Below, one piece after another: positions 52,857 through 62,863 of a stretch of DNA of 64,000 nucleotides (within the stretch, counting starts at the first letter, position 1; each line of letters starts with the position of its first letter). Below the pieces are notes generated by a model, which searched no databases, had not been told where the DNA came from, and saw nothing but the letters and a program-made list of their open reading frames with translations. The DNA is taken from NCBI GenBank assembly GCA_965227295.1, contig OZ245742.1:2016001-2080000 (forward strand), in the 5' to 3' direction. This stretch comes from Leptonemataceae bacterium (GTDB lineage: Bacteria; Spirochaetota; Leptospiria; Leptospirales; Leptonemataceae). The position numbers were made by a program, and so were the translations under genes.

Positions 52857-53387
52857 TTGACAGAAACAGTGGTCTCGCCATTTTCGGTAAGGCGGGTTCG
52901 TGCGTTGAAGTCAGTAGAGAAATACTATTGCGAGCTATATGCGGACGAAGATCTGACCGCGCTGCTCAGATTTTTTTCGGAGAATCCTACCAAAATGCTG
53001 CGGGATCGCCCGCTTCAGGTGCTTCAGGCATCGGTTGATCACAGACAGATGATTGTCGTCCGCGCGGAGGATTCTGACCTGATTGTTGGAACGGCCGCGG
53101 TTTTTCAGTTTCTTGACATGCAGTATGTGGAACTCGGTTGCATGAGCCTGGGTTCGGCTGTTCGTGGGCAGCGTTTGCAGAGTGTTTTGATTGCGATGCG
53201 GATTTTGCAAAGCTATCTGCTGGCCGCCCGCCACGTATTCTGCGTGGTGAAAAAATATGAAGCAAAGACTGAGGAGCGGACACGATCTTATAAAAACCTT
53301 TTGCGTGCGAACTTTGAGGAATGGGAACAACCACCTGATGAACTAAAGGCCGCCCGGGCAAAACTCTTAACGTCGGAAAGTGCATAA
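52857..53387 (+). CDS. Divergent GNAT-like protein
   Basis: IVGTAAVF, VELG.M.L..AVRGQRLQ (acetyl-CoA loop-like), S.KNL.RANF; start uncertain. Confidence 0.55.
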   Translation: MTETVVSPFSVRRVRALKSVEKYYCELYADEDLTALLRFFSENPTKMLRDRPLQVLQASVDHRQMIVVRAEDSDLIVGTAAVFQFLDMQYVELGCMSLGSAVRGQRLQSVLIAMRILQSYLLAARHVFCVVKKYEAKTEERTRSYKNLLRANFEEWEQPPDELKAARAKLLTSESA

Positions 53388-53463
53388 TTTTACCATGCAA
53401 TTTTATTGCATTTTGCAACAAAAGGCTTGACGCGGTTGCATTCTGTGCCGAAATTTAAATGTA

Positions 53464-53802
53464 ATGAAAACCCGGGTTCGATCATTAAGCTCCTTGCTTC
53501 AGCGCATTTCGCAGGAGCAGTTGGCGGAGATTCTGGACGTTTTGAATCATCTCGTCAAATCCCCGGACGAAGTGTCAGATGAAGATTTTGTTGCCGCGGT
53601 TCGTGTCTGTAGTGAATTTTTGAATTTCTCGACGCAGGACCTGGCGATAGAGTTTGCCGTTACGCCGAGCACGATCAGTCGCTGGAAAAACGGCAAGAAT
53701 ATGCCGATTCATCTCGCGCGCAAAGCCGTCCTCATGCGAGTGGCGGCGGCTGTTTCTGAACGAATCGAGCTGATGAGAGAAGACGCATCCTCTCGCGCGT
53801 GA
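53464..53802 (+). CDS. XRE-family HTH protein
   Basis: STQDLAIEFAVTPSTISRWKNGKNMP. Confidence 0.8.
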   Translation: MKTRVRSLSSLLQRISQEQLAEILDVLNHLVKSPDEVSDEDFVAAVRVCSEFLNFSTQDLAIEFAVTPSTISRWKNGKNMPIHLARKAVLMRVAAAVSERIELMREDASSRA

Positions 53803-53883: not shown

Positions 53884-54780
53884 TTATCTCTTCTTGAGTT
53901 TGAGAAGCACGTACTTCTTCTTTTCCTGGAACGTTTCCGGTCGAACCTTGCCGACTTCTTTTTCCAGCTTGCCGTCGATGTAGTCGCGGATGCGTTGCGT
54001 GAGATAGTAGAGCCGCGGCCGCTTGTGCTTCAGCTTTTCGTAGCCGTAGTGTTTGAGCGGGAAGATGAATCGATTCGCGTACATGGTTACGAACGACAGC
54101 GTCGGCAGGATGTTCGGCGTGATGTCCTGTTCGTACTCCAGGTCCCAGCCGTACTGCTCCGCCGTCTCGTGGAAGTTCTTCAGGTTGTGCGGCTTTTTCG
54201 TGTCGCCCAGACTGAAGTAATCGCAGATGATCCAGTTGCCGCCGGGGGCGATGAGTTCTTCCGTTTTGTTGAACGCCGCCTCGAGCGGAAAGACATACTG
54301 CAACGACTCGGAGTTGATGATGGTGCCGTAGCGTTTCCCGGCTTCGTAGTGTTCGTAGTTGGAATGGTGCGTCGTAAGCTCGGGGTAGTGCTGCTTGATG
54401 TACTCGATTTGATTGAGGTTCGGCGTGAGGCTTTCCACGGGATAGCCGCGGCTGTTCAGCATTTGCGATAATCCACCCAGGCCGCAGCCGACGTCGAGGA
54501 TGGCTTTGTCTTTGTCCTCCACCAGCGCGATGATGTTTTCCCAGTACTGTTTTTGCGCGTCTTCGAAGTCCTGAAAGGAGATGGACTTCGGGTCGACGTC
54601 GACATCCTCGAAGTAGCCGTAGTGCAGCATGTTGTTCGTGAGAACTTTCGAGTAGAGGTAAAGTTCCAGGTCGTAGTTGACCTTGTCCGCCTTGCGGTTC
54701 TTGCGGGCAAAACTTCCGGCTTTGAACCACTGGATGGGATTGAGGAACGGCGTGATGAGCTTCATAATCGGTGGCGCCAT
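53884..54780 (-). CDS. Class I SAM-dependent methyltransferase
   Basis: LHYGYF, ILDVGCGLGG, SESLQY, PGG.WII.DYF. Confidence 0.88.
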   Translation of the reverse strand: MAPPIMKLITPFLNPIQWFKAGSFARKNRKADKVNYDLELYLYSKVLTNNMLHYGYFEDVDVDPKSISFQDFEDAQKQYWENIIALVEDKDKAILDVGCGLGGLSQMLNSRGYPVESLTPNLNQIEYIKQHYPELTTHHSNYEHYEAGKRYGTIINSESLQYVFPLEAAFNKTEELIAPGGNWIICDYFSLGDTKKPHNLKNFHETAEQYGWDLEYEQDITPNILPTLSFVTMYANRFIFPLKHYGYEKLKHKRPRLYYLTQRIRDYIDGKLEKEVGKVRPETFQEKKKYVLLKLKKR

Positions 54781-54849
54781 GGAATTGACGGCGGACGGAT
54801 TCGTCTATTATGATTGTGGCGCGGTGGCGCGGCGGAGGTCAGCGGCGGG

Positions 54850-55841
54850 ATGGATTATGCTCAGCTTTTACAGAACATCGGCGCGATGCACCGAAAGGCC
54901 GACGCGGCGGCGCGCCTGGGTTTGAACGCGGCCGTGCTGGATTCCCGGCGGGAGATCGGCCGGTTGCTCGTCGAGGGCGAGATGGACGGCGCCCTGCGCG
55001 CTCGCTACGGTTCGGAGCTGCTTAAGAATCTTGCAGTTGATCTTAAGGAGACGTTGGGCCCGGGTTACTCGCAGCGCGGCCTGCACATGATGGCGCTGTT
55101 CTTTCGTTTGTTTCGCGGGCGCAGGCTGCGCTACGAGCTGAACTGGACGTCGTATCGGGTGCTGTTGCTCGTGAAAGACGATGCGTTGCGCGGCGTTCGG
55201 AACGTGAGGCGGCGGATTTGCTGTTGTCCACGCGGCAACTGGAAGCGCTGGTTCGGGAGCGCCTGGGCAAAGCGCCGCGCACGTTCGCGTGGGATCGTCC
55301 GGCGGGGGAATTGTTTTCGTTTCGCGTGCGGCGGACGATCGCCGGCTTTCCCACGGCGCATCCGGTGCTGGACCTGGGCTTCGCGTTGTACTTTCGGCCG
55401 GACTGTCCGGAGCTGGATTCGTTCGCGGACGACGAGACGGTGCTGTCGGTTAAAGATTCGGTGAGTGGAAGTTACCGTTTAACGGCCGGCGCCGATCCCG
55501 GCGCGCGGCATTTGTATGCGGCGCAGGTGATGCGCGTGATCGACGGCGATACGTTCCTGGCGTTCATTGATTGCGGCTTCGGCATGATCGTTCGCCAGCG
55601 TTTGCGTTTGCGGCGCGTGGACGCTCCGGAATTGCACGAGCGCGGCGGGAAGGAGGCGCGGGCGTTCGTGGAAGCGCGCTTGCGGCCGCGGCAGGTGGTG
55701 GTGCTGCGGACGTTTCGGACGGATAAGTATGATCGGTATGTTTGTGATGTTTGGTACGGGAAGGCCGGGGCGGATGCGGCGCGTGTGGTGCGGGAGGGCG
55801 TGTTGTTGAATGAGGAGATGGTTGGGTTGGGGTGGGGGTGA
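54850..55841 (+). pseudogene. DUF1016(YhcG)-N-terminal domain + thermonuclease fusion, frameshifted near 55190-55200
   Basis: First frame: EIGR.LVE.E..G..RARYG..LL..LA.DL..GYS.R.L..M, LNWTSY..LL. Second frame: LSTRQLE then RVIDGDT..D.GF..RLRL..VDAPE, DKYDRY..DV. Confidence 0.8.
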
Positions 55842-55842
55842 G

Positions 55843-56460
55843 TTATAGAGAAGACATGACGACGCGAACTTTTCCCTCGATGTTGAATTCCCGCCCAATT
55901 TCTATTGGCTTAAAGTCTGGATTGAGCGACTCCAGCAAACAAATCCCACTATCGAGTTTGCGTATCACCTTTATGAGCGGGGAGCCCTCGTTAACGCAAA
56001 CGACGATATCTCCGTCATTCGCTGCCTGGGCCTTTTCTGCGATTACGATATCTCCGTTGTGTATGCGGGGCACCATTGAGCTACCGCGGGCTTGAACGAT
56101 GAAAGCCCGATCCGGCGGGAAGCCCAAGAGTCTTATGGGAACGGGGATTCGCTCAATAGGATTGCCATCGAGTATCGATCCACTGGGCCCGCACTGAGCA
56201 AGACCGTAGCGATTAACGTATGCAATTGCCTTCTGGATCGGATCACTGAGTATTTGGTAATCTCGAGAATTTCCGGGATTCCGTAGCAAGTAGCCTTTTT
56301 TTTCCAATTGCGTGACGTGATGATGAACGAGATTGGGCGCGGACAATCCCAGCTCTTCCTGTAATTCCCGCATACTCAACGGCTCGTCGATCGTTTCCCT
56401 GAGTAAAGAGAGCAAACGCTTCTGAGTCGGATGCAGCTCGCCTTTCTTTGATCTAGCCAT
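55843..56460 (-). CDS. LexA-like repressor (wHTH + S24 autopeptidase)
   Basis: LHPTQK.LL, PLSMRELQEELGLS...V.HH..QLEKKGYL.R; AQCG cleavage-site region; GSSM (Ser); GDIVI; LIK (Lys); SLNPDF; IEGKV. Confidence 0.9.
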   Translation of the reverse strand: MARSKKGELHPTQKRLLSLLRETIDEPLSMRELQEELGLSAPNLVHHHVTQLEKKGYLLRNPGNSRDYQILSDPIQKAIAYVNRYGLAQCGPSGSILDGNPIERIPVPIRLLGFPPDRAFIVQARGSSMVPRIHNGDIVIAEKAQAANDGDIVVCVNEGSPLIKVIRKLDSGICLLESLNPDFKPIEIGREFNIEGKVRVVMSSL

Positions 56461-56991
56461 TTACTAAGTATATGATTAGTGTGTGAGTCGAGCACGCAAT
56501 AGAAAAAGCTTTCTAAGTCTATGAAAAAGTGTACAATAATTTCCTTGCAGTAGTTTTTGTACCACAATAGTGTCCAATTATGTGCAAGAGGCATTTCCCG
56601 CGTTCGAATCCGGATACTTCGGGACGCGATAATTTGGGCTGATTTGTGACCCCAAAAAAATCGCTACTGACGAAAAGTTACATTTTGGCACTCAAGAGGG
56701 GTGATTGCTAATTTTTTTCGAAAAAGAGCCAATCCGTCTTGACATCTCGTGAAAAAAGGAATCATTTTTCGTAGGGACAGGATGCCCTGAAAAAAAGGAA
56801 AGCCCCGGCATGGCCGAGGCTTTGTAGTGCTTACTGGCGCAAAGGCCAATAAAGTTGCTAAAAAAAGACTAAATCGCCCGCCCGCGCCAGGTCAAGCACT
56901 ACATTTCGTTTTTGTTCACCTTGGATAGCCCGTTTGGCTATCCGGGGCGCAGCATACCTGTCTCCAAAATCAACATTTTAGGAGACATAGT

Positions 56992-58701
56992 ATGATTCCA
57001 TCGCTCGTTCTGATCGATCCTAGCCTGGGACCAATCGAGAGAGCCGAAATTGACGAGGCACTGGGCGGTACTCCGTTCAATCTCATCAATTGCGACTCCA
57101 GTCTGACCCTCTGGAAGAGCCGGCAGGCGGACTGGGGTTTTCTTAAAAACCAGCAAATCCGTAAATTCGATTCAGTCATCGCACCGGAGCTCCACTCTGC
57201 GGAAGTCCGTGAGATTTACTTTGCCGGGCTTACTTCCATTCCCACGGCGGTCCATTGGGGTTACCTCTGCGGGCGTATACGCCCTGTCAGAGTTCTCCAG
57301 CGCCATCATCGCACTGGTTCGTGGAAATGGGGGGAGGCTGATTTTTCGCCGAAGCCTCTTTGCAGGCTGCCGCAAGAGGAATATTCAGCCTTTGGCGATG
57401 TTGTTCTGTGTGTAAGCACGTCTCATTCCGTGAATTTGGAAGCGGTTCGTCGGCAGGTGCCGAACGCTATTTACACTGCCGCCATTGAGCTGCGGGAACC
57501 CGACGAAGATGCGATTACTTCGCATGAATACTGCGAGCAAATCGCTGACGAATTCAAGTCTATCTTGGATGCAATAAGTACGCGCATTCCCAGGGCTGGT
57601 CGTATTCATCTCTTTGCGGCTGTTCCCTGCGGCCTCGCGTTTATGTTGGGAGCTCGCATTAGTCCGACGATGCATAAACCAATTCAGACCTACAATTATG
57701 TAGATGGTACTCGTTATGCTCCTGCGATTCCGATTTGTCCGAAGCATGAGGAGCCTTTGGTGGTTTTGCTGTCAGGCGGGGAGTGCGCACGCTTGCGAGA
57801 GATCGCACAGGCTGAGTTAACCGGGCTGTCGCGGTCTTTCCTTAATCTTGGAAAGCATATCGAAGCCGGCGATTGGAGAAAGCAGATTGAGAAAGACTTG
57901 GATCTTGAGATAGTCTCTCCGGACTTTGTGAACTTACCTCCGCTGCATGAGACTGACATTAAACACAGCCGTGTTTCAACGAAGGCCGATGACCCCAGGT
58001 TTTTTGATAGGGAGACTCTGGAGTGGAGTGTGTCGGACGAATTACTTGCGATCCTAAGTCGTAACTTCACCGATTCGGACCGCCTCAGACGGGCTCTTCG
58101 TATGTTTTTCATACATGAAGCGCTGCATCCTCATCAGTCGATTACCTCCTATAACTACGGGGGACTCGGGAATTTTACGAATAGTGCCGCCGCTGCGGAC
58201 TACGTTGCGGATGTATACGCGTTGGGTTACGAATACTCGTATACATGCATGTCTCAGGAATGCAATCAAAGGGAATTCCTCAGGGAAGCGATAGAAGTGG
58301 CGATTGAGACAATCTGGGCCTTCAATCACGATAATCAAACGCCTCTCGACCGGCTGGAACTACGCGTTTTTCAAAGGTTACTTACCTGGTACTGGGTACT
58401 TACGAAAATACTGAATTCGGAAGGCTCCCAATTTCAAGAGCTTTTTCGATCCCATTATATCGAGATTATCGGGTTACCGCTGATCGTAGACGACGGCCGA
58501 GTTCACGTTTCGTTACGGCCGGCTGAGATGCGCCTTGAGCTTGGCGCCATCGTCAAAGGTCGTTTTGAACGGTATAGCGAGAATAGCAACCGGCACTTAT
58601 CTAACTTGGTCTCTGCTGTGAGTGAGAGAGGTCATGAACAAATAAAGCATGAGATGCAGGCAATTCATCCTGCTCTGACTACTAAAGGAGTTGCCATATG
58701 A
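56992..58701 (+). CDS. CBASS effector candidate: N-terminal SAVED domain + C-terminal HExxH metallopeptidase-like domain
   Basis: SAVED-like motifs YFAGLTSIPTAVHWGY, QRHH..GSWKW, VLCVSTSHSV, RIHLFAAVPCGLAFMLG, IQTYNY; HEALH at 58114-58128 followed by ADYVADVYAL; aggaga RBS; coupled to the CD-NTase. Confidence 0.85.
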   Translation: MIPSLVLIDPSLGPIERAEIDEALGGTPFNLINCDSSLTLWKSRQADWGFLKNQQIRKFDSVIAPELHSAEVREIYFAGLTSIPTAVHWGYLCGRIRPVRVLQRHHRTGSWKWGEADFSPKPLCRLPQEEYSAFGDVVLCVSTSHSVNLEAVRRQVPNAIYTAAIELREPDEDAITSHEYCEQIADEFKSILDAISTRIPRAGRIHLFAAVPCGLAFMLGARISPTMHKPIQTYNYVDGTRYAPAIPICPKHEEPLVVLLSGGECARLREIAQAELTGLSRSFLNLGKHIEAGDWRKQIEKDLDLEIVSPDFVNLPPLHETDIKHSRVSTKADDPRFFDRETLEWSVSDELLAILSRNFTDSDRLRRALRMFFIHEALHPHQSITSYNYGGLGNFTNSAAAADYVADVYALGYEYSYTCMSQECNQREFLREAIEVAIETIWAFNHDNQTPLDRLELRVFQRLLTWYWVLTKILNSEGSQFQELFRSHYIEIIGLPLIVDDGRVHVSLRPAEMRLELGAIVKGRFERYSENSNRHLSNLVSAVSERGHEQIKHEMQAIHPALTTKGVAI

Positions 58702-59801
58702 ACAGAATTTATAACCGCGAATATTTGGAAGAAATTCTCGATCGCATTGGGGCGGCGCTGGATCTCCCCCCGGGGCGGGAGGACAATATTAAGAATCGGT
58801 ATAAGAGCGTTCAAGAATACCTTTGTGGGGATGAATTTTTTAGATCAAGAGATTTGAATGTTTATCCTCAAGGCTCTTTTCGGCTTGGTACGGTGAATAG
58901 CGGTTTTAACGGAGAAGACGTCGATCTTGACTTTGTCCTGGAAATCGTTTCAGAAGAATTCGAAGTCGGCCCCATGAGACTGTATAGTCTTGTCCATGAA
59001 AGACTTCTGGGGAATGAGCATTATCGTTCAAAGGTAAAGACCAAAAATCGCTGCCTCCAATTGCAATACAAGGGTCAGTTTCATATGGATATTCTGCCTG
59101 CCATTGCTGTCCCAGGTAGAAGTGATACGAGCATCCTTATCCCCGATCGTAAGCTTCAGTCATGGACTGCAAGTAATCCGCGCGGCTATGCCGTTTGGTT
59201 CGAGAATCAGACCATTCAAATGCGTGAGAACTTCTTGTCTATGAAGGCTGAGGCTCTGGCCGGAGATCACCAAGTGGAGCCAGTGGCGGATCGCGAAACG
59301 CATGAACAAAAACTCCCACTCAAGAAAGCGATTCGGCTAATGAAGCGGCATCGAGATATTTACTTCGCGAATAAACCGAAGTTGAAACCGATTAGTATCG
59401 TGTTAACTACGCTGGCATCTGAGAATTATGCGGGAGATCTTGATGTGTATCCGACCTTAATGAACATTCTGAACAGTCTCTGTCAGAAGTACTCGGGTCT
59501 TTGGGGGCCGCCAGAAATCAAAAACCCGACGAATGCAAATGAAAACTTTGCTGAAAAATGGATCGCGGAGCCACACTTGTTCCGGGCTTTTCAAGAGTAT
59601 ATCAAGTATCTACGGGACTGGTGGGCGACCTTGCCGGAAAGATGGCCGGAAGACTTGGGACATTCGCTAAGTGAACACCTGGGCGATGGGGTGCGCAGGG
59701 TCTACGAAGAATATCAGAGAAACCTCGCGGATCGCGAGAGCTTCGGAGCTCCGGCCGTAATAAACTCAAAGGAAAGAACAAAGCCATGGCGAATCCAGTG
59801 A
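58698..59801 (+). CDS. cGAS/DncV-like nucleotidyltransferase (CD-NTase, SMODS)
   Basis: YPQGSFRLGT, DVDLD, FHMDILPA, SNPRGYA.WF, L.KAI.LMKRHRD, PISIVLTTLA, I.NPTN.NENFAEKW. Confidence 0.93.
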   Translation: MNRIYNREYLEEILDRIGAALDLPPGREDNIKNRYKSVQEYLCGDEFFRSRDLNVYPQGSFRLGTVNSGFNGEDVDLDFVLEIVSEEFEVGPMRLYSLVHERLLGNEHYRSKVKTKNRCLQLQYKGQFHMDILPAIAVPGRSDTSILIPDRKLQSWTASNPRGYAVWFENQTIQMRENFLSMKAEALAGDHQVEPVADRETHEQKLPLKKAIRLMKRHRDIYFANKPKLKPISIVLTTLASENYAGDLDVYPTLMNILNSLCQKYSGLWGPPEIKNPTNANENFAEKWIAEPHLFRAFQEYIKYLRDWWATLPERWPEDLGHSLSEHLGDGVRRVYEEYQRNLADRESFGAPAVINSKERTKPWRIQ

Positions 59802-60478
59802 TTTCCCGTGCGCGGCGCTCTACGTTTCTCCGGAAAGAGTTGGCTGTTGCAAAGATGTTGCTAAAAAAAGCAAAGGTGACTTGGGGCAGTCAGGTGTCTG
59901 TGCGCGGATGGTTTCATTTTAGCACGCGCGTCGATGGCAGGGTTATTGAGGACCTGTACGAAATTCGAATAGTTTTTCCGGAACAATACCCAGGCTTGTG
60001 GCCAGTCGCTTATGAATTACAGAATCGAGTGACGTCTCAATTCCATCGCAACCCTGACGAGTCACTATGCCTCGGCTCGAATCTTGATTTGCATCGCATC
60101 TATAGTAGGGATAAAGGGTTTGAGAATTTTATCAAAGAGATGCTTACTCCTTTTTTAGCCGGGCATAGTTTCTGGAAGCGTTATGGCGTTGCGCCCTTCG
60201 GAGAAAGGGCGCATGGAGGAGATGGCGTTTGGCAGGCTTACTTGGATTTGTATTCGGAGGAAAGTCTGGATACAGTCCTTGGTGCTGTTGAATGGGCATT
60301 AAAGAATCGTGAAGAACGTGGTCATGTCGTTTGTCCCTGTGTGCTGAAGGCCAAAATGCGTGAATGCGGTCAGAGCGGTTGTAGGTTGTTCGCAGGGCTA
60401 CAGCTAATCCAATCTATGCACCCAGCTCTGTTGCGCCAGGATCTCGATGCACTACGTAGTTCATTGATCCGGGAGTAG
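59786..60478 (+). CDS. Prokaryotic E2-like protein with C-terminal SEC-C-like Cys motif (short type II CBASS)
   Basis: YEIRIVFPEQYP..WP.AYE, HRNPDESLCLG (E2 catalytic Cys), PFGERAHG..G..QAY, CPC......REC; overlaps the CD-NTase 3' end. Confidence 0.82.
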   Translation: MANPVISRARRSTFLRKELAVAKMLLKKAKVTWGSQVSVRGWFHFSTRVDGRVIEDLYEIRIVFPEQYPGLWPVAYELQNRVTSQFHRNPDESLCLGSNLDLHRIYSRDKGFENFIKEMLTPFLAGHSFWKRYGVAPFGERAHGGDGVWQAYLDLYSEESLDTVLGAVEWALKNREERGHVVCPCVLKAKMRECGQSGCRLFAGLQLIQSMHPALLRQDLDALRSSLIRE

Positions 60479-60489
60479 GTAAACGAATC

Positions 60490-60540
60490 CCCGCGCCAGG
60501 GATGCGCGAGCCCGAAGCAGCCCACCTACTCGATCCCAAA
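60490..60540 (+). repeat. Internally deleted REP-like element carrying the last ~10 nt of a group II intron
   Basis: cgcgccagggatg-cgcgagcccgaagcagccc-a-cctactcgat|cccaaa; the 16-mer at 60525-60540 is identical to 6471-6486. Confidence 0.7.
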
Positions 60541-60777
60541 CAATCTTTCAAAAGAACCTGAGCCCACTGCCGACTCTCGCGGTAGCGCACAAACGTCCCG
60601 AAACACAGTCATCGAAATGCGGATAAACACAGATTGACGCAGGCCCCCCGCCGGCCGAAACTCAGAGAATCGAGGAGCATCCAATTTTGCACGTGCGCGT
60701 GCGAAATTCGGGAAGGAGAAACATCCACGATCGCCGAACTCCTCGCCCCTGATGACACAAATCGAATCACATTTTCA

Positions 60778-61650
60778 TTGACTCAAAACCGCAACTCGTA
60801 CAATGGACGAAGCCCGCGAGGTGCCGCCACGCAATACGACATCGCCAGCAAAGAGTTCATGCACATCAGCGGGCGGGAGATCCTACAAAAGTTCCTGCAA
60901 ACGAAGCCGACGCTGGTCGAAGCAATGGAAGAGTTACCGACCGAGACGGTAAACGTCCGGCGATCCGATGCACCGGTCCGTATGATGCAGGCGGACGGGG
61001 CGGAGCGGATCGTGCTCGTGGAGTACCAGACGAACTGGGAGAGTGAGTTACCGATGCGCCTCGTAGAGTATCACGCGCGGTATTGGCTAAAGTACCGGGT
61101 GCCGGTGGATACGTTGGTTTTTTTGATCCGACCTCATCAGGCGGCGAACGCAGAGTATGCGAATCATGCCATCCGATTTCAATATCGGCTGATTAAACTC
61201 TGGGAGTTGCCGGCCGCGGAGTGGATCGAGGCCGAATCGGCGTTGTTGCCGTTTGTCCCCTTAATGAAGGACGGCGGGCAGTACGTCGAGCGAGCCCGGG
61301 AGCGGATACAGAAAGATGCAAAACTCAGTGCCGAAGAAAAAACGAGTTTATTAACGGTGCTATGCGTGTATACCGGGATGCACGATCCCGAGCAGGCGCG
61401 GGACATCCTCAGAAAGGCAGGCCAACTTATGATAGAATCACCCGTCTACGATTGGATTCGGCAAGAGGGCGTCGAAGAAGGCCGTGAAGAAGGCCGTGAA
61501 GAGGGCCGTGAAGAGGGCCGTGAAGAAGGCAAGCTGGAAACTGCGGCGCGTATGCTGGAACACGGCCTGGACCTGGCGACGGTCCTGAAAGTAACGGGCC
61601 TGTCGGAAGAATTGCTGCGCGCTCGCGGCGTGTGGCCGGGCGAATCTTGA
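60778..61650 (+). CDS. Rpn/YhgA-like PD-(D/E)XK nuclease (putative transposase family)
   Basis: YDIASK, RRSD, LVEYQT, MRL.EY, LLPFVPLM, ESPVY..I.QEG, (EEGR)n, A.RML..GL...V.KVTGLS; start uncertain. Confidence 0.85.
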   Translation: MTQNRNSYNGRSPRGAATQYDIASKEFMHISGREILQKFLQTKPTLVEAMEELPTETVNVRRSDAPVRMMQADGAERIVLVEYQTNWESELPMRLVEYHARYWLKYRVPVDTLVFLIRPHQAANAEYANHAIRFQYRLIKLWELPAAEWIEAESALLPFVPLMKDGGQYVERARERIQKDAKLSAEEKTSLLTVLCVYTGMHDPEQARDILRKAGQLMIESPVYDWIRQEGVEEGREEGREEGREEGREEGKLETAARMLEHGLDLATVLKVTGLSEELLRARGVWPGES

Positions 61651-61708
61651 TTTCGCGTATCGATGAATACCGGAGCCGTCAGAATAGCAGTAGGTCTCGA
61701 TGCCATGC

Positions 61709-62863
61709 TGAAATAGTCAAGATTCCATCTGACACTCCGATATAATTTGTATCGGAGGAAAGAGATGACAGCAGAACAAAAAATCGTAAAGCACCGGGTG
61801 GGCATCTTGAGGCTGGCCCGTACTCTGAATAACGTTGCAGAGGCTTGCCGGGTGATGGGCGTATCACGCGATACGTTCTACCGGTATCAGCGGTTGTACG
61901 AGACCGGAGGCGAAGAGGCCCTGAAGGATCTCACGCGGCGCAAGCCGAACAAGAAGAACCGGATTCCGGCGGATGTGGAAGACGCGGTGATCGAGTTCAC
62001 GTTCGAGAAGCCGGCGCACGGTCAATTGCGCGTGTCGAATGAGCTGCGCAAGCGCGGCGTTTCGATCTCACCGGGCGGCGTGCGTCAGGTCTGGTTGCGG
62101 CACGACATGGAGACGTTCAAGAAGCGTCTGAAGGCCCTGGAAGCCCGCGTCGCGCAAGAGGGGATCATTCTCACCGAGGCACAGGTCGCGGCGCTTGAGA
62201 AAGGCCGCCAGGACAAAGAAGCGCACGGCGAGGTCGAATCGCACCACCCCGGCTATCTGGGCTCGCAGGACACGTATTACGTGGGCAATATCAAGGGCGT
62301 GGGGCGGATCTACCAGCAGACCTTCATCGACACGTACGCTAAGGTCGGCTTTGCAAAACTTTACGATCGCAAGAACGCACTGACGGCGGCCGACTTGCTG
62401 AACGATCGTGTGTTGCCGTTCTACGCGGACTACAACATCCCGCTGCTGCGCGTGCTCACCGATCGCGGCACGGAGTACTGCGGCAAGCCGGAGAATCACG
62501 AGTACGAGTTGTACCTCGCGATGGAGGACATCGATCACACCAAAACCAAAGCGCGGCATCCGCAAACGAACGGCGTCTGCGAACGCTTTCACAAGACGAT
62601 TCAGGAAGAATTCTACGCCGTCGCGTTTCGCAAGAAACTCTACTCAAGCATCGAGGAGCTGCAAGCCGATCTGGATGAATGGATGCTCGAGTATAACCAG
62701 GAACGGACGCACAGCGGCAAGTACTGCTTCGGCAAGACGCCGGCGCAAACGTTCGCTGAATCCATCGCCGTGGCGCGTGAAAAGATGCTGCATAAACAGC
62801 ATCAGGTATCGACCTGATCATATCTGACAGGCAGGAGTGTCAGATCGGGTGTTGGCTAGTACA
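61709..62863 (+). mobile_element. IS481-family insertion sequence with 6-bp target duplication CCATGC
   Basis: Imperfect 30-bp IRs (tgaaatagtcaagattccatctgacactcc / tgtactagccaacacccgatctgacactcc); ccatgc at 61703-61708 and 62864-62869. Confidence 0.93.
61765..62817 (+). CDS. IS481-family DDE transposase
   Basis: NV.EACR.MGVSRDTFYR HTH; PGYLGSQDT, TDRGTEYCG, PQTNG.CERFH. Confidence 0.95.
   Translation: MTAEQKIVKHRVGILRLARTLNNVAEACRVMGVSRDTFYRYQRLYETGGEEALKDLTRRKPNKKNRIPADVEDAVIEFTFEKPAHGQLRVSNELRKRGVSISPGGVRQVWLRHDMETFKKRLKALEARVAQEGIILTEAQVAALEKGRQDKEAHGEVESHHPGYLGSQDTYYVGNIKGVGRIYQQTFIDTYAKVGFAKLYDRKNALTAADLLNDRVLPFYADYNIPLLRVLTDRGTEYCGKPENHEYELYLAMEDIDHTKTKARHPQTNGVCERFHKTIQEEFYAVAFRKKLYSSIEELQADLDEWMLEYNQERTHSGKYCFGKTPAQTFAESIAVAREKMLHKQHQVST

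Follow-up and report, generated by a model that had tools for sequence, protein, structure and literature searches.

An intact LexA2-clade repressor facing a CBASS operon in a Leptonemataceae bacterium, and a probable damage link between its clade and neighbouring defence genes

Does a LexA-type repressor that is encoded head-to-head with a CBASS operon place that operon under the control of DNA damage? We addressed this question in a Leptonemataceae bacterium (GCA_965227295.1), for which we analysed a stretch of 64,000 nt on the forward strand of contig OZ245742.1 (positions 2,016,001-2,080,000), referred to as the window. The reading that we lean towards, without great confidence, is that the window encodes an intact repressor of the Leptospira LexA2 clade, that this clade likely represses adjacent defence genes until damage is sensed through RecA, and that the link is weak or lost at this particular locus. 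The clade-level part taken alone, namely that a LexA2-type family would couple adjacent defence operons to RecA-sensed damage, we regard as probable. The features on which the analysis is built are collected in Table 1.

Table 1. Features of the repressor and CBASS region, in window coordinates
Feature	Position	Strand	Basis or score
LexA2-clade accessory LexA with winged HTH and S24 peptidase; C90-G91, S128, K164	55843..56460	-	
Best match to the clade operator matrix, degenerate (6.5 bits)	56538..56570	-	6/1000 shuffles reach the score
Alignment counterpart of G071's LexA2-type box, with a single mismatch and an 11-base instead of 10-base spacer	56557..56577	+	
3' remnant of a DUF3892-like small gene, 17 codons and stop	56589..56642	+	0/150 shuffles with either of two queries
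Candidate second sigma-70 promoter for CBASS: exact -35, weak -10, 15-base spacer	56739..56765	+	by eye
Strongly folded predicted leader with several hairpins, before the SAVED gene	56765..56991	+	folding versus shuffles
CBASS effector: N-terminal SAVED and HExxH predicted metallopeptidase	56992..58701	+	PADLOC
CD-NTase, cyclic nucleotide synthase	58698..59801	+	PADLOC
Stand-alone E2-like CBASS protein	59786..60478	+	PADLOC PDLC00871, E 8.7e-42

We found that the lexA gene and the CBASS operon diverge from a spacer of 531 bp (56461-56991), and both the PADLOC operon call and the coordinates agree with the head-to-head arrangement described in the initial annotation. PADLOC models for the cyclase, the effector and the E2 protein, whose reading frames overlap, assign the operon to the E2-only type, which we take to be short type II CBASS. 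As in that type, the CD-NTase is followed by a stand-alone E2 and accompanied by a SAVED effector, but the effector in the window is a SAVED-HExxH peptidase. The low-GC composition noted earlier for this island is borne out, with GC contents of 50.3% in lexA, 43.3% in the spacer and 47.5-50.7% in the CBASS genes, compared to 59.8% for the genome, in which 0.2% of 531-bp windows have a GC content of 45% or less. Contigs from two runs of one study, one of which may be the source sample of the window, cover 54500-62000 without mismatches or indels. An Rpn-like nuclease/transposase gene lies in the downstream CBASS flank (60634-62817), together with an IS481 element, of which the genome has five more copies. 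Additionally, a nuclease gene with DUF1016_N and SNase-like parts is split over two overlapping frames at 54814-55841 (64% GC); a 74% identical stretch of it occurs elsewhere in the genome, and the split form is also found in contigs of two runs. At 52857-53802, an ORF of 176 aa that weakly matches acetyltransferases is followed by a small HTH gene, both with a GC content of approximately 50-52%.

Next, we examined the identity of the repressor. Its reading frame is intact, as had been claimed, and encodes 205 aa with Pfam matches above the cut-off to LexA_DNA_bind (PF01726, 47.3 bits) and Peptidase_S24 (PF00717, 69.3 bits), and the protein carries both the Cys-Gly scissile site and the Ser-Lys dyad of LexA/S24 autocleaving repressors. 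Upon alignment with 50 of 120 relatives among the matches listed, C90, S128 and K164 were invariant (51/51 sequences) and G91 was present in at least 90%. The initial annotation had allowed for the gene being the host's core lexA, and we find that a separate core copy lies approximately 67 kb away; it scores 218 bits against TIGR00498, the core LexA equivalog, whereas the window protein, 29% identical to it, scores 88.8 bits and falls under the cut-off of 110.95. Furthermore, the window gene was not found in two genomes of the same genus (93% complete), and a close clade member occurs in one of 41 other genomes of the host family. Because of its score below the TIGR00498 cut-off, the high score of the other copy and its absence from the two same-genus genomes, we identify the window gene by sequence criteria as a second, accessory LexA and not the core SOS LexA of the host. 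The host recA is intact.

In a quick tree, the relatives of the window repressor formed a single branch relative to core LexAs, with 100% SH-aLRT and a long branch. Inside this clade lies, together with the window protein, the copy from genome G071 of the same order, to which the window repressor is 56% identical. The G071 copy carries C92/S130/K166, is followed by an M28 peptidase gene and has an exact TTGTA-N10-TACAA box, all of which match features published for LexA2 (LIC12654) of Leptospira interrogans Copenhageni (PMC3789691). Since the G071 copy stands in for the LexA2 sequence, we assign the window repressor to the Leptospira LexA2 clade by proxy. Both proteins are accessory, laterally acquired LexAs with a Cys-Gly bond and the same spacing of catalytic residues (C90/S128/K164 and C92/S130/K166), and each is approximately 28-29% identical to the LexA1 of its host. 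The level of LexA2 falls after UV, the protein binds TTGTA-N10-TACAA in its own promoter, and UV raises the expression of the gene divergent from it more than six-fold (PMC3789691); LexA2 has so far been thought to act on its own unit only (PMC4756842). LexA2 faces a small divergent gene, whereas the window retains no more than a 17-codon remnant of such a gene, its box is imperfect and CBASS follows; the available portion of the LexA2 paper does not report CBASS at the published locus and ties LexA2 to no defence system (PMC3789691). In Leptospira, the gene in this divergent position is a UV-induced hypothetical gene (PMC3789691). DUF3892-like small proteins also recur divergently in other loci (L152:916-1125, L164:7803-8003 and L129:1622-1936).

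We then investigated which genes lie beside clade members. A metagenome scan confirmed at least 409 relatives, of which the best 80, forming 65 clusters at 90% identity, were used, and a CD-NTase was found on the divergent side in 12 of these best 80 loci. Among 44 non-redundant loci from this set with at least 1.5 kb upstream (43 representatives and L075, whose cargo differs from that of its cluster), CBASS was divergent in 11, compared to 0 of 48 control S24 loci (Fisher p 1.4e-4, with kin not independent and with a CD-NTase HMM trained on CD-NTases of the clade itself, a bias in favour of the clade). The controls were drawn from 51 distant S24 loci of 26-41% identity, obtained by scanning a genome collection with the window protein, of which 48 had at least 1.5 kb upstream; CBASS was found in none of the 51. 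Homologues are thus linked to defence operons, which favours the interpretation in the initial annotation. The CBASS cargo of the clade is varied, including HNH-SAVED, other SAVED fusions, NucC and 1TM effectors with E2, ThiF or TRIP13 partners, and the CBASS label is scattered over the clade tree (150 of 500 shuffles were as low).

Other divergent defence genes were observed in 8 more of the 44 loci (Shedu, TIR, an HNH model, AriAB, OLD/GajA, RM and GmrSD), while Pycsar and ThsA were found beside clade genes in shorter metagenome loci. RM genes lie downstream on the lexA strand in 18 of the 44 loci; of the 11 CBASS loci, 6 have RM genes downstream as well. By hand tally, defence or RM genes flank 27 of the 44 loci and 17 are without a defence label. 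Directly behind lexA, vsr and a C5 methylase are found in L075, L083, L104 and L133, among others, and a convergent gene accompanies them. Several genes in the CBASS position are barely annotated or carry no annotation (L095:7107-9896, L107:7369-9888, L123:8487-9734 and L121:973-1683), and we consider them candidates for new defence systems. A close clade member was present in one of 4 viral loci and none was found among plasmids, nor was one detected in 401 genomes of G512's phylum or in 6 of G513's phylum.

No CD-NTase or SAVED gene was found in 23 whole-genome clade loci, some of which have short flanks; these comprise the copies of G039 and G071, 6 of the 10 copies in genus g53, 11 from other spirochaetes and 4 from G511's phylum. 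Family f9 has a clade LexA in 10 of its 20 genomes. In six loci of genus g53 (L165-L170), this gene faces a conserved cassette that combines unknown genes with a family-B-like polymerase, with GAAC-N7 repeats; the cassette is likely an undescribed mutagenesis cassette. Inspection of translations indicates that umuDC-like genes follow the clade gene in at least three of the four loci from G511's phylum. In G251 the operator repeat also precedes a radical-SAM operon, and a radical-SAM/DUF4130 operon faces some clade members. Furthermore, in four of the five spirochaete genomes tested the clade gene is the sole TIGR00498 match. Because of these sole matches and the umuDC-like, PolB and radical-SAM contexts, the clade likely includes core SOS repressors as well as defence-linked ones. 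The earlier notion of a repressor dedicated to CBASS is not supported, since clade members also stand at the head of RM, Thoeris-like, Pycsar, PARIS-like and SOS-type genes, and no CBASS was found in the 23 whole-genome loci. Defence and SOS contexts both point to DNA damage.

The upstream regions of the clade share a characteristic motif. Of 63 non-redundant upstream regions with a length of 150 bases or more, 48 contain GAAC-N8-GAAC (shuffle mean 0.36) and 35 contain the full form, in which GTTC follows after a further 9-11 bases (shuffle mean 0.02). It is exact in 9 of 12 clade CBASS loci, with the inverted pair present in all 12. We take GAAC-N8-GAAC to be the predicted operator of the clade, to which its repressors would bind. 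This predicted operator often fills the spacer of the divergent promoter, and its third half-site usually runs, by inspection, into a TTGAC that points at lexA. The LexA box of Gram-positive bacteria is GAAC-N4-GTTC. The alphaproteobacterial one is GTTC-N7-GTTC (PMC8565304). Relative to canonical LexA, the clade retains the domains, the catalytic dyad and the GAAC/GTTC half-site, but the window protein lies below the TIGR00498 cut-off, Cys-Gly replaces Ala-Gly, and the defence-linked members have an 8-base direct repeat with an inverted half-site. Among the spirochaete chromosomal members observed, the repeat is mostly of the 7-base kind. LexA2 itself uses TTGTA-N10-TACAA where most clade members carry GAAC-N8-GAAC, and we infer that its box shares the 8-base geometry of the clade repeat, with GTAC-like halves.

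The position of the repeat bears on an alternative view of the whole clade. Since the clade gene is the sole lexA match in four of the five spirochaetes, some defence neighbours may be insertions beside a core SOS gene, and in its full form this view holds that the clade is a self-regulating divergent SOS repressor at an insertion hotspot, where defence genes gather without being controlled by it. The housekeeping or SOS contexts of the 23 whole-genome loci are in line with this, as is the difference in divergent cargo between near-identical repressors (CBASS in L075, TIR and 8xMP in L083). However, the first defence gene starts within approximately 200 bases of lexA in CBASS loci, so that the repeat occupies the only room for a defence promoter; -35 and -10 elements pointing away from lexA, on the defence strand, bracket the repeat, although under a strict pattern in 20 of 44 sites only; and the UV induction of the gene divergent from LexA2 also runs against an uncontrolled neighbour. 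We consider the hotspot view improbable and retain the reading in which the clade represses its neighbours.

What holds for the clade does not carry over directly to the window spacer. The exact GAAC-N8-GAAC motif was not found there, and clade training sites score 16-42 bits compared to 6.5 bits for the best operator match of the window. A 15-base direct repeat (56461/56510) was tried as an operator and rejected, as it differs from the clade motif. Control of CBASS by the host LexA1 was likewise rejected: the published leptospiral LexA1 box, CTnnACnnnnGTnnAG (PMC4756842), occurs exactly upstream of the host recA, and in the window spacer it needs at least two mismatches. There is no exact copy of TTGTA-N10-TACAA in the window, the best being one with an 11-base spacer and one mismatch or one with a 10-base spacer and two. 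Compared to the G039 and G071 spacers, the window is without approximately 180 bases that correspond to the RBS, the start and most codons of the small gene, and its lexA-CBASS gap of 531 bases stands against at most approximately 205 in 12 other CBASS loci. The recognition helix has an Asn in the window, G039 and G071 copies and a Ser in most clade members; because of this change, the specificity of the window repressor may have shifted along with its site. The window looks like a decayed or rearranged clade member, and since its operator is degenerate, the repressor likely exerts weak control over the adjacent CBASS, or none.

Because a small-gene remnant and a folded CBASS leader lie inside it, the spacer, as far as its composition of elements can be predicted, is not simply a bidirectional promoter. 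The candidate second promoter for CBASS was not called by a promoter scan of the window. The leader that follows has a predicted fold of -93.2 kcal/mol (z -5.56, 0 of 200 shuffles), in which the RBS of the SAVED gene has 5 of its 6 bases in predicted pairs, whereas the first half of the spacer is predicted to fold no better than shuffles. This leader may exert translational or attenuation control of CBASS. It also holds a terminator-like hairpin on the minus strand. No homologues of the leader were found, as Rfam gave two matches, both under the gathering score, and searches in plasmids (blastn), in 190 genomes of the class and by a viral pattern scan returned short chance matches only.

The same spacer can be read in the opposite direction, namely that the window LexA fully controls CBASS, with its changed helix reading the GTAC-type site and with the deletion having given read-through from a damage-inducible promoter. 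This site is in register with the G071 box and promoter, has one mismatch, and overlaps the predicted divergent promoter; the repressor that would read it is intact. On the clade matrix the degenerate site beats 994 of 1000 shuffles, which also counts against a complete loss in the window, no plus-strand terminator was listed between the remnant and the SAVED gene, and the clade pairs with CBASS at other loci. On the other hand, the additional base in the spacer of the box, the unusually long gap relative to the other CBASS loci, and a second exact -35 and strongly folded leader nearer to SAVED all weigh against full control, as does the observation that L. interrogans genes past the small divergent gene are not UV-induced (PMC3789691, section 21). 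We judge full control to be unlikely, if well short of negligible, and keep to a weak or lost link in the window. The proposal that a RecA-cleavable repressor ties this CBASS to DNA damage therefore survives in part: the clade pairing, the operator-like repeat and the drop of LexA2 after UV are in its favour, while the degenerate window operator and the intervening remnant and leader are not.

We also considered the effector, for which it had been speculated that the SAVED metallopeptidase, activated by a cyclic nucleotide, could cleave the repressor and so give positive feedback like that of CapP on CapH. The structure model of the effector (pLDDT 91.6) matches Cap5 structures over its SAVED half (Z 28.8, rmsd 2.6 over 245 residues), and the best structure match of the peptidase half is a weak one, to selecase (Z 5.9, rmsd 4.0 over 106 residues). 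The SAVED-HExxH family has more than 200 relatives at 50% clustering. All 90 aligned sequences share HExxH, D403 and D407. The HExxH motif and the position of the effector gene beside that of the repressor would suit a protease acting on it. Nevertheless, position 400 is an Ala in the window where 88 of the 90 have a Glu, so that the window effector may be weakened, and the repressor keeps a Ser-Lys dyad of its own. Moreover, a peptidase effector is annotated in none of the 11 other partner CBASS operons, the annotated ones being SAVED fusions, NucC and 1TM, which leaves the feedback idea unsupported. We regard it as very improbable and have dropped it.

Three families of damage-responsive regulators of immune operons have been described, CapW/BrxR, CapH+CapP and CapK+CapS, none of them LexA-type in the available portion of the source (PMC13373217, 2026). 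Like these, the clade consists of repressors beside CBASS and other immune operons, with a damage response that is presumed for the clade, and CapK+CapS often lies between an RM system and CBASS or Bub, which resembles the RM genes in 6 of the 11 clade CBASS loci (PMC13373217). The three families sense single-stranded DNA via WYL, a separate metallopeptidase or a kinase (PMC13373217), whereas in the clade a single gene encodes an S24 repressor that would cleave itself and depend on the host RecA to do so. CapW/BrxR has a wHTH-WYL-WCX architecture, while a Pfam scan of the window protein gave no WYL match and an S24 domain in its place. CapH+CapP combines a small HTH repressor with a stand-alone metallopeptidase; the window has a single HTH-S24 protein and a neighbouring peptidase that is fused to SAVED. 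Additionally, CapK+CapS-type domains (GHKL-type kinase, STAS-wHTH) were found in none of the 13 proteins scanned around the locus. RptR is a single-domain repressor, and LexA goes unmentioned in the available part of that text (PMC12255303); a 2025 preprint, in the part available, associates defence genes with the global LexA, not a local one (10.64898/2025.12.14.694197). In the literature, covered through main texts that were mostly open-access, we found no description of a local LexA-type CBASS repressor, and a 2017 study of the Patescibacteria SOS response may describe the motif. To the three described families, the clade likely adds a fourth kind of defence regulator that responds to damage, one cleaved with the help of RecA.

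In the mechanism that we propose, a clade repressor would bind the predicted GAAC-N8-GAAC-N(9-11)-GTTC, with the direct repeat sitting between the -35 and -10 elements of the defence promoter and the third half-site overlapping the -35 of the promoter that drives lexA. Self-cleavage at Cys-Gly would be triggered by RecA filaments on single-stranded DNA, upon which CBASS would rise on one side, and lexA with co-transcribed restriction methylases on the other. In the window, the repressor would have been acquired within a cassette of lexA2 and the small gene, which would have decayed afterwards, and CBASS would be transcribed mainly from its own candidate promoter through the structured leader. 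A bolder version, which we hold only tentatively and think doubtful as a whole, makes the LexA2 clade a fourth, RecA-dependent immune damage switch acting through GAAC-N8-GAAC-N10-GTTC, in which CBASS, Pycsar, Thoeris-like or PARIS-like operons and restriction methylases would be co-induced on opposite sides of the operator, and the window CBASS would still be controlled, with the leader as a second layer.

For these questions the window matters less than the clade, and L110, L118 and L062 are better test cases. Overall, a local LexA of this kind would wire CBASS and restriction systems straight to RecA and the SOS signal, and the reading would give the orphan LexA2 clade a role.
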